From assembly GCF_988243305.1 (NCBI RefSeq), contig NZ_OZ547136.1: a DNA stretch of 64,000 nucleotides, one strand, 5' to 3'. The notes beneath the pieces are model-generated. The model did no database searches. It worked only from the letters and a program-made list of their open reading frames with translations, and was not told the DNA's origin. How positions within the stretch are numbered: the stretch's first letter is position 1; every line of letters begins with the position of its first letter. Of the stretch, positions 1,667-8,489 are shown piece after piece. The translations under genes were made by a program, and so were the position numbers.

Positions 1667-2917
1667 CTACGCTAAACCAATAAAGAACCCGGCAATGGTG
1701 GCACTCATCAGATTAGAAAGTGTCGCCGCCGCCAGCGCGCGTAAACCAAGCTGGGCGATTTCCGGCGCACGGTGTGGCGCAACCGCAGAAAACGCCCCCA
1801 CCACCACCCCGATAGAACCAAAGTTAGCGAAACCGCACAACGCGAAAGAAATAATCGCCACGGTTTTAGCATCCAGAGTGCCAGCTGTTTGCAGATAAGG
1901 TGAGAAATTGAGGTAAGCGACAAATTCATTAATCGCCAGTTTCTGTCCAATCAAACTCCCGGCAAGATTCGCATCACTCCAGTCAACCCCCATCACCCAC
2001 GCCAGCGGGGCCAGCAGGTAACCTAAAATGGACTCCAGCGAGGCATGTTCAAAACCAAACCAGCCGCCAACGCCGCCGATAATACCGTTAATTAACGCAA
2101 TGATGGCGACAAATGCCATCACTACTGTCGCCACACCTGCGGCGATTTTCAGCCCGGTCATTGCCCCTGTAGCGGCGGCTTCAATAATGCTTTTTGGCGG
2201 TGTTTCGGTGAAAGAGAGGTTATTAAAGGAAACCTGCGAAGATTCGGTAGCCGGGCTTAACAGGCGGGCAAACAAGATCCCGCCAGGGATCGCCATTAAC
2301 GATGCCGCCAGCAGATATTCCACAGGCACGCCCAGTGCAGCGTAACCAATCATTGTCGAACCAGCAATCGAGGCCATGCCACTACAAATCGCTGTAAATA
2401 ATTCATTGCGATTCAGCCGATCGATAAAGGGTTTGACGATTGCCGGAATTTCGTTTTGCCCGAGGAAAATGGTAGTGACCGCGACGAATGACTCGATCTT
2501 GCTGATATTTAATGCTTTCTGGAAGATACCGCCGAGAATGCGAATTAAGATCCCCATCACACCGATGTAGTAGAGAATACTCACCAGTGCTGTAACGAAG
2601 ATAATTGCCGGTAATACCCTGAAACCAAAGATAAATCCTGCGCCATCAAATAAGGTATCCATTTTCGGTCCGACCAGAGAACCAAAGATAAATGCGCTAC
2701 CTGCATCGCTGTACGCCATCACTTTATGCACGCCAAAAGCGACTTTTTCTGCGACCCAACGCCCTGGTGGTAACCAAAGCATAATGCCGCCAATCACGAC
2801 CTGTAACACTAACGCCGCGCCAACGGTACGCAGGCTGATCTTCTTCTTGTTTACTGACAGCAAAAACGCAATTGCCAGTAATACCACCATTCCCAGAACA
2901 CTTCTCATGACATCCAT
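1667..2917 (-). CDS. nupX: Nucleoside permease, concentrative nucleoside transporter (CNT) family
   Basis: 416-aa polytopic membrane ORF; close paralog of PsuT at 4855..6105 over the whole length. Confidence 0.9.
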   Translation of the reverse strand: MDVMRSVLGMVVLLAIAFLLSVNKKKISLRTVGAALVLQVVIGGIMLWLPPGRWVAEKVAFGVHKVMAYSDAGSAFIFGSLVGPKMDTLFDGAGFIFGFRVLPAIIFVTALVSILYYIGVMGILIRILGGIFQKALNISKIESFVAVTTIFLGQNEIPAIVKPFIDRLNRNELFTAICSGMASIAGSTMIGYAALGVPVEYLLAASLMAIPGGILFARLLSPATESSQVSFNNLSFTETPPKSIIEAAATGAMTGLKIAAGVATVVMAFVAIIALINGIIGGVGGWFGFEHASLESILGYLLAPLAWVMGVDWSDANLAGSLIGQKLAINEFVAYLNFSPYLQTAGTLDAKTVAIISFALCGFANFGSIGVVVGAFSAVAPHRAPEIAQLGLRALAAATLSNLMSATIAGFFIGLA

Positions 2918-2942
2918 AGTTATTATCTCTTCATGTCATTTT

Positions 2943-2970
2943 GGGCGACGGCTTTCTGCCCATCAGAAAT
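2943..2970 (-). other. Conserved 28-nt leader element, copy 1 (rihB-nupX gap)
   Basis: 27/28 identical to 6172..6199; on the minus-strand RNA it can form a 5-bp stem GAYGG/CCGTC with loop GCAGAAAG. Confidence 0.4.
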
Positions 2971-3016
2971 AGCCGGGCCTGCATCTTGCGATACTGTCCC
3001 GGCTTGTTATCAACAC

Positions 3017-3958
3017 TTAATGGGTTTTGATGTAGCCGCGCACGCACTCTTCGACTAATCCCCAGAACCAGTCGGTATCAATAGTGATGCCGACTTTGGT
3101 ATTGGCGGGCTTGCCAAGAACGCCCAGCTCGTCGCAGACGGTACGCCCATAGCAAGGGCCACTGTTAACGTCCACGTCGACGTACATCTCCTGGGTTTTA
3201 ATGCCATCAGGGTTAATCAGATAACCGATGCAGGTGGCGTCATGCACCGGGCCGCCAGCAAGGCCGTAGTTTTCGAACTGCGTTTTGAGAGTGAAGTTCA
3301 TGATGTCGCTGAACAGCTCTCCGGCGGGGCCGCCTGCCCTTTCCATCCGTGCAATCACGTCCGGGGTGCAAACGGTCTGGTTGGTGAGATCGAGGCCCAT
3401 CATCACTAATGGAACGCCGGAGGTGAACACCACGCGTGCCGCTTCCGGGTCAGCAAAGATGTTGAACTCGGCGGATGGCGTAAAGTTGCCAGTACCGTAA
3501 GCGCCGCCCATCAGCACAATTTCACGGATTTTCGGCAGGATCGCGGGTTGCATACGCATTGCCACCGCGATGTTTGAAAGTGGACCAACCGGCACCAGAG
3601 TGATATCGCCATCGCTTGCCATCAGGGTATCGATGATATATTTCACCGCATGAGTGCTTTCTGCCTGGCGGGTCAGCGGCCCGAATACCGGGCCATCAAG
3701 TCCGGTTTCACCGTGAATATTATCGGCAACGATTTGTTGACGCATAATGGGCTGTGGCATCCCCGCATAAACCGGAACATTAATCTCCAGTTTCTGGCAA
3801 ACATTCAGGCCATTAATTAATGTTTTATCGAGGGTTTGATTACCCGCTACAATGGTGATACCTAATAAATCTATTGCCGGATGTTTCGCTGCCATCATTA
3901 TTGCAATAGCATCATCATGACCCGGATCACAATCCAGGATAATTTTTCTTTTTTCCAT
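3017..3958 (-). CDS. rihB: Ribonucleoside hydrolase (pyrimidine-specific)
   Basis: 313-aa ORF with N-terminal DCDPGHDD nucleoside hydrolase signature. Confidence 0.9.
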
Positions 3959-4786: not shown

Positions 4787-4807
4787 AAAATAATCTGCAA
4801 TAGCACG

Positions 4808-4848
4808 ATTGCCGGATGTGACGCTTAATAAGCGCGTACATCCGGCAA
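4808..4848. repeat. REP-like palindromic unit
   Basis: Inverted repeat tgccggatgt...acatccggca in the yeiL-psuT convergent gap. Confidence 0.5.
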
Positions 4849-4854
4849 TGACAC

Positions 4855-6105
4855 TCAAGCTAAACCAATAAAGAACCCGGCAATGGTCGCGCTCATCAGG
4901 TTGGAAAGCGTTGCTGCTGCCAGCGCCCTTAAACCAAGCTGAGCGATTTCCGGAGCACGTTTTGGCGAAATAGCCGAAAATGCCCCAACGACAACACCGA
5001 TAGAACCAAAGTTAGCAAAACCACAAAGCGCAAAGGAGATAATCGCAATGGTTTTCACTTCCAGCGTGCCGCCCGTTTGCAGGTATGGGGAGAAACTCAG
5101 GTAAGCGACGAATTCGTTAATCGCCAGTTTCTGCCCAATCAGGCTACCCGCAAGGTTGGCATCACTCCAGTCCACACCCATGATCCACGCCAGCGGTGCC
5201 AGCACATAGCCAAAAATACTTTCCAGAGAGGCATTGGCGAAACCAAACCAGCCGCCAATTCCGCCGATAATGCCGTTGATCAGCGCAATAATTGCGACAA
5301 ACGCCATTACCACCGTCGCTACACCAGCGGCGATTTTCAGCCCGGTCATCGCACCGCTCGCCGCCGCTTCGATAAAGCTTTTTGGCGGCGTTTCGCTGAA
5401 CGACAGATTTTCAAATGTCACCTGCGAAGGCTCGGTGGCTGGGCTAAGAATACGTGCAAACAAAATACCACCAGGGATCGCCATCAGCGATGCCGCTAAC
5501 AGGTAGTCAATTGGTACGCCCATTCCGGCATAACCAATCATCATCGAACCAGCAATGGACGCCATCCCGCTACAAATTGCGGTAAACAACTCGTTGCGAT
5601 TCATGCGATCGATAAACGGTTTAACGATCGCAGGGATCTCATTTTGCCCGAGGAAAATAGTGGTAACCGCAACAAAAGATTCGATTTTGCTGATGTTGAG
5701 GGCTTTCTGGAAAATGCTGCCAAGGATGCGGATTAGCAGCCCCATCACGCCAATGTAGTACAGCAGGCTGATGAGCGCAGTGACGAAGATAATCGCCGGG
5801 AGTACGCGAAAGGCGAAGATAAAGCCCGCGCCATCAAACAGGACATCCATTTTCGGCCCGACCAATGAACCAAAAATAAAGGCACTACCGGCATCACTGT
5901 AAGACATCACTTTATGAACGCCTAATGCCGCCTGCTCTACCGCCCATTTTCCTGGTGGAAAATAGAGCATGATGCCGCCAATGGCGATTTGTAGCAGCAG
6001 CGCGGCTCCAACCGTGCGCAAACTGATGCTCTTTTTATTCACTGACAACAAAAATGCTATTGCCAGTAACACCACCATCCCCACAACACTTCTCATTATA
6101 TCCAT
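4855..6105 (-). CDS. psuT: Pseudouridine/nucleoside transporter (CNT family)
   Basis: 416-aa ORF paralogous to nupX; last gene of the psuK-psuG-psuT operon. Confidence 0.9.
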   Translation of the reverse strand: MDIMRSVVGMVVLLAIAFLLSVNKKSISLRTVGAALLLQIAIGGIMLYFPPGKWAVEQAALGVHKVMSYSDAGSAFIFGSLVGPKMDVLFDGAGFIFAFRVLPAIIFVTALISLLYYIGVMGLLIRILGSIFQKALNISKIESFVAVTTIFLGQNEIPAIVKPFIDRMNRNELFTAICSGMASIAGSMMIGYAGMGVPIDYLLAASLMAIPGGILFARILSPATEPSQVTFENLSFSETPPKSFIEAAASGAMTGLKIAAGVATVVMAFVAIIALINGIIGGIGGWFGFANASLESIFGYVLAPLAWIMGVDWSDANLAGSLIGQKLAINEFVAYLSFSPYLQTGGTLEVKTIAIISFALCGFANFGSIGVVVGAFSAISPKRAPEIAQLGLRALAAATLSNLMSATIAGFFIGLA

Positions 6106-6171
6106 AATGATTTTCCCTTCATGCCAGTAAACCCGGCGTCAGCGCCAGGTTTTGGTATGTATGATCAGTAC

Positions 6172-6199
6172 GGGCGACGGCTTTCTGCCCGTCAGAAAT
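6172..6199 (-). other. Conserved 28-nt leader element, copy 2 (psuG-psuT gap, overlaps psuG stop by 1 nt)
   Basis: 27/28 identical to 2943..2970. Confidence 0.4.
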
Positions 6200-7137
6200 T
6201 AACCCGCGAGACGCTGGTATTCTTTGGCAATTTCACTCGCCAGAATGGCGTTGTTGAACACCAGTTGGATGTTGGATTTCAGGCTGTCACCGCCAGTCAG
6301 TTCAGCAACACGAGCCAGCAGGAACGGTGTGCTTTCTTTACCAATAACGCCCTGCTCTTCGGCTTCGGCAACGGCTTGATCTATGGCTGCATTGATAGAT
6401 TCCTCCGGCATCGCAAACTGTTCCGGGATCGGATTTGCCACCACCAGGCCACCGTTCAGCCCGCTTTGCCATTTCACCGCCATTGCATGGGCAATTTCAC
6501 TGGCGCTGTCGAGACGAATACTGACGTCAAACGGGCTGGTACGGCAGAAAAACGCAGGCAGCGCTTTGGTCTGATAGCCAATTAACGGCACACCGAAGGT
6601 TTCTAAATACTCAGTGGTTAATCCTAAATCGAGAATAGATTTCGCCCCGGCACAAACAACGGTGACATTAGTATTTGCCAGTTCTTGCAAATCGGCAGAA
6701 ATATCGAAGGTATGTTCCGCCCCGCGATGCACACCACCAATTCCCCCTGTGGCAAATACTTTAATTCCGGCAAGCGCCGCAATAATCATCGTTGAAGCAA
6801 CGGTAGTTGCGCCATTTTTTCCGGCGGCAACAACAAAAGGTAAATCGCGACGACTAACTTTGGTCACGTTATGCCCTTCACGACCCAGCAATTCAATTTC
6901 TTCTTTGCTTAAACCCACTTTCATCACGCCGCCAATAATGGCGATAGTGGCAGGTACAGCGCCCTGTTTACGAATAGTTTCTTCAACTTCAATTGCGGTC
7001 TGGGCATTTTGTGGGAACGGCATCCCGTGAGAAATAATGGTCGATTCCAGCGCCACAACCGGTTTTTTGTTTTTTAAAGCGTCCTGCACTTCCGGGGAAA
7101 TTTGTAATAATTCAGGGGAAATTTTTAATTCAGACAT
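6199..7137 (-). CDS. psuG: Pseudouridine-5'-phosphate glycosidase
   Basis: 312-aa ORF matching the PsuG/YeiN family; overlaps psuK by 13 nt. Confidence 0.9.
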   Translation of the reverse strand: MSELKISPELLQISPEVQDALKNKKPVVALESTIISHGMPFPQNAQTAIEVEETIRKQGAVPATIAIIGGVMKVGLSKEEIELLGREGHNVTKVSRRDLPFVVAAGKNGATTVASTMIIAALAGIKVFATGGIGGVHRGAEHTFDISADLQELANTNVTVVCAGAKSILDLGLTTEYLETFGVPLIGYQTKALPAFFCRTSPFDVSIRLDSASEIAHAMAVKWQSGLNGGLVVANPIPEQFAMPEESINAAIDQAVAEAEEQGVIGKESTPFLLARVAELTGGDSLKSNIQLVFNNAILASEIAKEYQRLAG

Positions 7138-8133: not shown

Positions 8134-8169
8134 TTTAAACATGTGTTCATATTTAAACATGTGCTCATA
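8134..8169 (-). promoter_or_regulatory. Tandem 18-bp direct repeat in psuK promoter region (candidate operator)
   Basis: tttaaacatgtgttcata followed directly by tttaaacatgtgctcata (17/18), 68-103 nt upstream of the psuK ATG. Confidence 0.4.
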
Positions 8170-8304: not shown

Positions 8305-8334
8305 ATAAAAAAGGGCAGAAATTAATCTGCCCTT
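8305..8334 (-). terminator. Intrinsic terminator downstream of fruA
   Basis: 9-bp perfect stem AAGGGCAGA/TCTGCCCTT followed on the minus strand by a T run. A second hairpin with no clear U tract lies at 8452..8476. Confidence 0.6.
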
Positions 8335-8489
8335 GAGGAAATAACCTTAGTGTTTGATGAAGGTTTCAGGTTTCTACTAAAAGATAAAACCATTTAAATT
8401 CATAAAATTACATTCACAAACCGGTCATTCTCTTTGCGCGCATCAAATGTTACAGGGCAGGAAATTTCTGCCCTGTAACACACCTTTTA

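Follow-up and report, generated by a model that had tools for sequence, protein, structure and literature searches.

The nupX and psuT leaders share a 28-nt sequence

The 64,000-nucleotide stretch of DNA analysed here (the window; contig NZ_OZ547136.1) corresponds to the yeiI-nupX-rihB-yeiL-psuT-psuG-psuK-fruA region of Escherichia coli, the closest public record being 99.5% identical. nupX (1667..2917, minus strand) encodes a NupC-family transporter and psuT (4855..6105, minus strand) is its paralogue, both placed from the layout of open reading frames (ORFs) and the annotation of the 99.5%-identical record. A gapless alignment of the two coding sequences gives 79.3% nucleotide identity, and the proteins share about 90% of their amino acids. 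The genes upstream, also on the minus strand, are rihB (3017-3958) for nupX and psuG (6199-7137) for psuT. psuKGT is the pseudouridine salvage and catabolism operon.

An earlier note on this DNA reported that the leaders of both transporter genes hold a 28-nt element identical at 27 of 28 positions, and this was confirmed. On the plus strand the 28-mer reads GGGCGACGGCTTTCTGCCC[A/G]TCAGAAAT. One copy lies at 2943..2970 in the rihB-nupX gap and the other at 6172..6199 in the psuG-psuT gap, in each case with the sense strand on minus; the sense RNA of the nupX copy is AUUUCUGAUGGGCAGAAAGCCGUCGCCC. ORF layout and annotation agree with the note on both placements, including the one-base overlap by which base 6199 is also the final base of the psuG TAA stop codon. 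The two upstream genes are indeed unrelated, RihB belonging to PF01156 and PsuG to PF04227. With up to three mismatches allowed, the window contains exactly two matches to the 28-mer, while none of 100 dinucleotide-preserving shuffles contains one. Both copies are present in E. coli K-12, and two copies are found in 5424 of 5426 complete E. coli genomes (median two places per genome, maximum three).

The homology of the nupX and psuT units starts exactly at the 28-mer, and the sequence upstream of it is unalignable. Since third codon positions of nupX and psuT are only 53.6% identical in the alignment of the coding sequences, the element appears to be under selection. If bases matched at the third-position rate, 27 or more matches in 28 would have a probability of 6.6e-7; with the overall rate the figure is 0.013. 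Only two places within the 1251-nt coding sequence reach 27/28. The repeated 28-mer is real, and it marks a small RNA hairpin kept by enteric bacteria before two sister nucleoside-transporter genes.

Orthologous leaders reveal a conserved stem-loop

Leaders were gathered by a protein-based scan of one genome per species, together with contig look-ups for PsuT and NupX homologues. The sample comprises nine genera (Escherichia, Citrobacter, Leclercia, Enterobacter, Klebsiella, Kluyvera, Buttiauxella, Superficieibacter and Entomohabitans) and covers both the rihB and the psuG context. For the counting of folds, 23 distinct 39-mers were aligned without gaps and three candidate structures were scored. 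By the terms of the earlier note, lack of conservation in other genomes would have refuted the element; instead, a core of the form (G/A)GG(C/U)-N11-GCC(C/U) was found in all 17 protein-retrieved public loci, across nine genera, whose transporter is at least 86% identical. It is absent from a locus with a more distant homologue (L008, 72% identity). The first 7-8 bases of the 28-mer (AUUUCUGA), which lie 5' of the stem, are conserved within Escherichia only.

The conserved structure, here called stem-loop 1 (SL1), has the form (A)YGGGC, an 11-nt loop, and GCCCR(U), and can be formed in 23 of 23 distinct leaders from the nine enterobacterial genera. In the nupX leader SL1 occupies 2942..2962 on the minus strand (covariance-model match of 32.7 bits, E=1e-5). 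U2962 and GGGC (2961-2958) make up its 5' arm, AGAAAGCCGUC (2957-2947) the loop, and GCCC (2946-2943) with A2942 the 3' arm; loop base G2956 can additionally pair with C2947 across a bulged A. The psuT copy, at 6170..6192 on the minus strand (37.1 bits, E=8e-7), has a 6-bp stem in which ACGGGC (6192-6187) pairs with GCCCGU (6175-6170) around a loop at 6186-6176. These two copies are the only covariance-model matches in the window, and a search of 73 NupC-family loci from other bacteria with the model (R1) gave no match in their leaders. A metagenome scan for GGGCAGNNNGCSGTCGCCC returned 120 stretches, nearly all of them random matches in high-GC contigs; the only true matches (L113, L170 and L195) are all E. 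coli-like.

The five inner pairs are formed in all 23 sequences, which are related to one another and hold about four independent double substitutions, the four inner pairs having been partly pre-selected by the extraction pattern. Within the core, GGC/GCC is invariant, whereas the outer pairs vary and covary. Variable inner pairs are CG in 15 sequences, UA in five and UG in three; GC in 19 and AU in four; and CG in 22 and UG in one. The sixth pair is AU in 12, GC in three, GU in two and something else in six, while loop positions 2 and 11, which pair across a one-base bulge, are GC in 19, AU in two, GU in one and otherwise in one. Double compensatory changes are seen at four pairs, the extra loop pair included. 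Pairing holds in 90% of alignment cells and falls to 30-52% when the 3' partner is slid by one to three columns. RNAalifold, applied to 17 full leaders, returns the SL1 helix as the sole consensus structure. The helix has a predicted energy of -6.3 to -8.4 kcal/mol in every one of the 23 sequences and belongs to the minimum-energy fold of 21 of the 23 39-mers. The loop is constant at 11 nt with the consensus MGNNNGCSGUC, in which positions 9-10 (GU) are invariant, and the helix, of 5-8 bp in its general form, ranges from 5 to 12 bp. The upper end of that range is the Enterobacter nupX hairpin, whose loop (GAUCCCGGGUU) is now self-complementary, giving 12 bp and about -21 kcal/mol.

This structure differs from the fold put forward in the earlier note, in which GAYGG pairs with CCGUC. 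That fold can form in E. coli (-8.5 and -6.7 kcal/mol), where for psuT its stability equals that of SL1 (-8.5 against -8.4 kcal/mol), and folding the 114-nt psuT leader gives a minimum-energy structure that includes it. It is not conserved, however. It breaks in Citrobacter, Leclercia, Klebsiella and Enterobacter; over the 23 sequences it is paired in 74% of cells with no compensatory change, two of its pairs being broken in 10 and 14 sequences respectively. Its mean energy is -2.0 kcal/mol, favourable in Escherichia only, with values of -3.6 to +2.5 kcal/mol in every non-Escherichia leader. We therefore regard it as very improbable that GAYGG-GCAGAAAG-CCGUC is the functional structure, whether alone or alternating with SL1 as a switch. 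The check by comparative alignment that the earlier note had called for does find compensatory changes, but in the shifted SL1 helix. The single U/C difference between the two copies, explained there as a G.U wobble within the GAYGG/CCGUC stem, is instead one half of a compensatory pair, U-A in nupX and C-G in psuT, whose other half directly follows the 28-mer on its 3' side (A2942 in nupX, G6171 in psuT). The locus offers a clean small case in which comparison of paralogues and orthologues corrects a plausible single-genome fold. A third pairing, UUUCUG with CAGAAA, was rejected both as an RNA stem and as a DNA operator, being Escherichia-specific and present in only 62% of cells.

SL1 probably acts as sense-strand RNA

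Seven cells of the SL1 alignment hold wobbles, all of them G.U on the sense strand, and none holds A.C; this one-sided pattern points to RNA rather than DNA. The same behaviour is seen within E. coli, where the 5' arm of the psuT copy occurs as ..AC-GGGC (about 4000 genomes), ..GC-GGGC (375) and ..GU-GGGC (1040), counts obtained by assigning to each identity band the haplotype of the two to four genomes fetched from it. Every step in the series AC, GC, GU is a transition, and pairing is preserved throughout by way of wobble. With the covariance model, which was trained on the sense strand, scores of 37 and 33 bits are obtained in that orientation, against 13 bits for the antisense strand.

A competing explanation at the DNA level is that GGGC-N11-GCCC is a double-stranded operator for the CRP/FNR-type protein YeiL or for YeiI, a kinase with an HTH, and serves as a roadblock or controls an internal promoter. 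The sequence is palindromic, and most of the examined loci carry yeiL and yeiI, the latter encoding a PfkB kinase that has an HTH_24 domain, as flanking neighbours of the transporters; weak sigma-70-like hexamers, CTGATG-17-CAAAAT, can also be read on either side of the nupX copy in the window. Several features are difficult to reconcile with such a site. The half-sites are spaced 15 bp from centre to centre, roughly 1.5 helical turns; substitutions at the outer positions preserve complementarity and show no preferred base; the helix varies from 5 to 12 bp; and the seven G.U departures would be A.C mismatches in a DNA palindrome, whichever strand is read, while departures of the opposite kind are absent. 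The site is intercistronic, the promoter scan is negative at the element, and the presumed hexamers are its unconserved part. An operator is therefore quite improbable. The wobbles, varying helix length, fixed loop and strand scores fit a predicted sense-strand RNA hairpin better than a protein operator in duplex DNA.

Two promoter readings were considered by eye and by scan and set aside: a sigma-70 promoter bracketing the hairpin, whose spacer would be the conserved part, and a sigma-54 -24/-12 promoter, for which the spacing of GG and GC is wrong.

SL1 is retained while the rest of the leader changes

The distribution of conservation along the leader is uneven. Mean pairwise identity is 0.36 over the ten columns upstream, 0.77-0.83 in the stem arms, 0.61 in the linker, 0.76 in hairpin 2 and 0.71 in the Shine-Dalgarno region; within the SL1 loop it is 0.51 at positions 1-5 and 0.75 at positions 6-11. 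Third codon positions between genera are 0.46-0.58 identical.

In the psuT leader, a C/A-rich linker (6150..6169, minus strand) with a conserved AUCA-NNN-AUACC motif separates SL1 from hairpin 2 (6129..6149, minus strand), in which CCUGGCG-CUGA-CGCCGGG (6149-6132) is followed by UUU (6131-6129). Hairpin 2 and its UUU(U) are conserved in psuT leaders and in the nupX leader of Klebsiella spallanzanii, and deleted from other nupX leaders. With an A tract upstream and three to four U residues downstream, it looks like a weak terminator or attenuator, although it fails a terminator scan, which requires a longer U tract. The linker motif is present in the long leaders and deleted in E. coli nupX. 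SL1 is the only hairpin common to all leaders. What remains of the nupX leader in the window (2918..2941, minus strand) carries the Shine-Dalgarno sequence AAGAG.

The nupX leaders contain nested deletions of 20, 31 and 43 alignment columns, by which hairpin 2 and the linker are lost and SL1 is always spared. Together these amount to a natural deletion series that would mark SL1 as the constrained part. One E. coli genome, 13C1065T (L217), departs from this pattern: its nupX hairpin carries a stem-breaking C-to-A change in the 3' arm. In this strain rihB is truncated by IS1 and a psu copy was not detected, leaving nupX as the only place in the genome. The change fits relaxed constraint, as a single anecdote.

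A further explanation for the identity of the two copies is that the 28-mer is merely the tail of the duplicated transporter unit, without function and homogenised by short-tract gene conversion. Identity between the paralogous units is highest at their two ends, the 28-mer and the last 29 nt of the coding sequence. The E. coli copies have in common both AUUUCUGA, the eight bases 5' of the stem that vary in other genera, and the loop bases p3=A and p8=C, unlike most orthologues. The modules have also clearly recombined, their order being swapped in Enterobacter and a single or hybrid copy being present in Escherichia albertii. Conservation nonetheless extends to genera with a single copy (Citrobacter, Klebsiella michiganensis and Buttiauxella), and conversion leaves unexplained the compensatory changes, the wobble-only polymorphism and the retention through independent deletions. 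In E. coli nupX, moreover, the loop is bordered on both sides by a closing pair and flanks of nupX type, which would limit any tract to less than about 11 nt. Local exchange may add to the 27/28 figure, but as a full account of the element it is improbable.

The predicted SL1 structure is shown by these comparisons to be conserved, kept by compensatory and wobble substitutions, strand-specific, and retained when the remaining leader is deleted. It is likewise shown to accompany the transporter gene regardless of the gene upstream, judged from the leaders compared. The earlier note had suggested a shared processing, stability or regulatory element; its fold has been replaced, while a shared non-coding element under selection, present in nine genera, surviving deletions and most likely acting at the RNA level, is upheld.

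SL1 compared with known classes of element

Searches of Rfam 15 (4227 families) gave no match at either site or in the orthologous leaders of five other genera, even at E<=5. SL1 has the GC-rich stem-loop of an intrinsic terminator, with a GGGC/GCCC helix of -6.3 to -8.4 kcal/mol. It has no U tract 3' of the stem in any of the 23 sequences, where the flanks are GUACUG, AAAAUG, AUAACG and similar, and it was not reported by the terminator scan; an intrinsic terminator was therefore rejected. Hairpin 2 comes closer to known terminators and attenuators in its upstream A tract and its run of 3-4 U, and differs in failing the consensus scan and in being dispensable in nupX leaders. Repetitive extragenic palindromes (REP/BIME) were excluded by copy number, at a median of two and a maximum of three per E. 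coli genome, and by the lack of a GCCGGATG-type consensus. REP-like palindromes of the form GCCGGAT...ATCCGGC do follow the nupX and psuT stop codons, at about 1610-1660 and 4805-4850 in the window, the former giving a weak naRNA4 match well under the Rfam threshold.

Inspection of the leader structures revealed no conserved alternative pairing of SL1 with hairpin 2 or with the Shine-Dalgarno sequence. Because such pairing is lacking and hairpin 2 is missing from most nupX leaders, the expression platform of a riboswitch is not apparent. A search of the transporter transcripts, extended 400 nt upstream of the hairpin, gave no pseudoknot or long-range partner for the SL1 loop. A candidate partner at position +173 of the coding sequence, which in several species seemed to covary with loop position 8, does not hold up in Leclercia, Entomohabitans, Enterobacter FS01 or E. 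coli nupX.

Coding explanations were also discarded. On the antisense strand, the frame of the ORF at 6121-6585 over the psuT copy differs from that of any ORF over the nupX copy, and a sense mini-ORF would be read in different frames in the two copies. The variable positions are three consecutive loop bases, which is not codon-like. An upstream AUGAAG 'uORF' was dismissed as its AUG is missing in Leclercia and K. spallanzanii.

SL1 is located between cistrons and at the start of the distal leader, as are intercistronic and 5' stabilisers. Conserved intercistronic hairpins are common, and those that stabilise or process polycistronic mRNAs of E. coli include the malE-malF REP hairpins and the papB-papA processing site. 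Like these, SL1 is a GC-clamped hairpin between catabolic and transport cistrons, in its case conserved by compensatory change, and the enzyme and the membrane transporter probably need to be made at different levels. SL1 differs from them in not being a REP sequence, in having two copies per genome, in belonging to the unit of the downstream gene and in its partly conserved loop. A second comparison is with 5'-terminal stem-loop stabilisers such as the ompA 5' UTR hairpin. SL1 is similarly a short hairpin at the very start of a conserved leader, with conservation beginning at its 5' base, and is placed where a hairpin would block 5'-end-dependent attack by RNase E. It differs in that the RNA would need prior cutting from a longer operon transcript, or an unrecognised internal promoter. 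SL1 is a previously undescribed element but an ordinary one in kind: a lineage-restricted, conserved intercistronic RNA hairpin.

Proposed role of SL1

SL1 moves with the transporter gene, conservation starts at its first base, and the Enterobacter loop has been remodelled into a perfect 12-bp hairpin; a structural role in cis is therefore favoured. We propose that SL1 acts in cis as a structural hairpin where the transporter leader begins, affecting the stability, processing or insulation of the mRNA. This reading is tentative, and we put its probability at roughly 0.45. SL1 would form the 5' edge of an untranslated leader carried by the nupX/psuT transporter unit. In one version, cleavage in the A/U-rich stretch just upstream would make SL1 the first, or nearly the first, part of the distal-cistron RNA; that stretch is not conserved in sequence and is absent in K. 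michiganensis. In another, SL1 would shield the translation start of the transporter from upstream sequence. Either way, SL1 would give the transporter mRNA a stability and expression uncoupled from those of the enzyme genes upstream (rihB, or psuK-psuG). SL1 would act beside hairpin 2 in psuT leaders, where the short U tract of hairpin 2 may attenuate read-through. For the poorly expressed nupX and psuT, the datasets searched list neither transcript ends (5' or 3') nor promoters nor processing sites; the Term-seq and SMRT-Cappable-seq supplements record no ends for this locus.

The self-paired loop of Enterobacter nupX fits a role that would need a hairpin rather than a given loop sequence. 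A purely structural role would, on the other hand, leave unexplained why GU is invariant and why the 3' half of the loop is well conserved, both of which hint at recognition by a protein or RNA. SL1 could accordingly be imagined as a specific recognition hairpin whose loop (..GCSGUC, with invariant GU) is bound by a trans-acting protein or small RNA, co-regulating both transporters after transcription; the presence of one element on both paralogues would suit such co-regulation. The loop is fixed at 11 nt with positions 9-10 invariant, its 3' half is as conserved as the stem, and 22 of 23 sequences retain the bulged base together with the closing G-C pair after it. Set against this, the Enterobacter nupX lineage has rewritten most of the loop into a self-paired extension (GAUCCCGGGUU), the loop lacks the GGA motif of CsrA sites and matches no known operator, and it has no covarying partner in the transporter transcripts and 400 nt upstream, the candidate at +173 having failed. 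The literature and supplements searched held nothing relevant on regulators or small RNA partners of psuT and nupX, and no interaction data. We consider specific recognition unlikely, though it is the foremost of the alternatives to a structural role.

In overall form SL1 resembles the preQ1-I riboswitch, the lambda boxB hairpin and the MS2 operator, a resemblance only: it combines a short helix, a bulged purine and a fixed-length loop in which some bases are invariant, and it sits in transporter-gene leaders. It differs from them in having no Rfam match and no pseudoknot partner or alternative platform pairing, and in its loop being rewritten in one lineage. A more speculative possibility, to which we give little credence, is that the full ancestral leader (SL1, the AUCA-NNN-AUACC linker and hairpin 2 with its U tract) is a compact sensing leader governing read-through into the transporter gene, responding to a pyrimidine nucleoside (pseudouridine or uridine) or to a dedicated RNA-binding factor. 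SL1 would then be the binding core that nupX leaders kept when the terminator was lost.

If a selected, unannotated RNA element does control the transporter cistron, it would offer a handle on the balance between uptake and catabolism, and a natural, compact insulator or stabiliser part for engineered constructs. psuT features in the current engineering literature on pseudouridine production.

Other features of the leaders and neighbouring genes

A hairpin of the form AGCCGGG..N..CCCGGCU (2971..3004, minus strand) follows the rihB stop codon directly 5' of the element; unrelated hairpins occupy this position in other genera. Compared with the GTDB representative of E. coli (L002), this strain and K-12 lack about 12 nt of the nupX leader (window 2918-2942, L002 2464-2500). 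The short and long forms read GCCCAAAAUGAC and GCCCAUAACGGGAUCAGACCUGAC, the indel lying immediately 3' of the hairpin and removing the sixth base pair. At 2903-2937 on the minus strand, AUGACAU in the nupX leader can pair perfectly with AUGUCAU, codons 1-3 of nupX counted from the start codon, which would put the Shine-Dalgarno sequence in a loop and the start codon in a stem; this pairing is Escherichia-specific.

The order of the modules differs between genera. In E. coli it is fruA-psuKGT-yeiL/rihB-nupX-yeiI, and in an Enterobacter-like genome (L209) it is fruA-yeiL/rihB-nupX-psuKG-psuT-yeiI, with Enterobacter hormaechei (L205) alike over the part covered. Citrobacter and K. michiganensis have psuKGT only, and Buttiauxella has rihB-nupX only. 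These differing orders and combinations (L205 and L209 compared with the window, L004, L203 and L202) indicate recombination via the paralogous transporter genes. The transporter gene that follows psuG in E. albertii (L006) resembles psuT for the most part, with 88% nucleotide identity to the E. coli gene, but its final codons and the REP region beyond them agree with the flank of E. coli nupX. It represents either one ancestral copy or a hybrid produced by a psuT/nupX deletion.

nupX is internally deleted in E. coli WP5-S18-ESBL-09 and 884 (L213 and L214), leaving a short remnant, the first 66 nt of which are annotated as a pseudogene, with the leader hairpin kept. Some public records have only a 'hypothetical protein' annotated beside rihB. 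These deletions and annotations suggest that NupX is dispensable in part of E. coli.

YeiI (523-1611 in the window; homologues in L203, L204, L207 and L208) is a PfkB sugar kinase and PsuK paralogue with an N-terminal HTH_24/HTH_11 domain. Its gene adjoins a transporter gene in the examined loci that carry it, and YeiI could be a kinase-regulator for this locus.

Two terminator-like hairpins with GGGCAGA/UCUGCCC stems lie between fruA and psuK (8311-8334 and 8448-8480). The 9-mer GGGCAGAAA has eight exact matches in the window, including the stems of these hairpins and one match inside a coding sequence. Its one-mismatch variants are enriched window-wide, at 44 against 17 expected, so the GGGCAGA 7-9-mer common to these hairpins and to the 5' arm and loop of SL1 was judged to reflect coincidence or composition. 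The psuK/fruA intergenic region is reported to be a recurrent, likely adaptive mutation target during colonisation of the mouse gut by E. coli (PMC7518454), and psuK is listed as an RprA target in a comparison of TRIC-seq with RIL-seq (bioRxiv 10.1101/2025.09.11.675593). In the psuK promoter region (8134-8163, minus strand), two copies of CACATGTTTAAA form a direct repeat, 18 nt from start to start. Each copy contains the palindrome ACATGT, and the repeat looks like a candidate operator.
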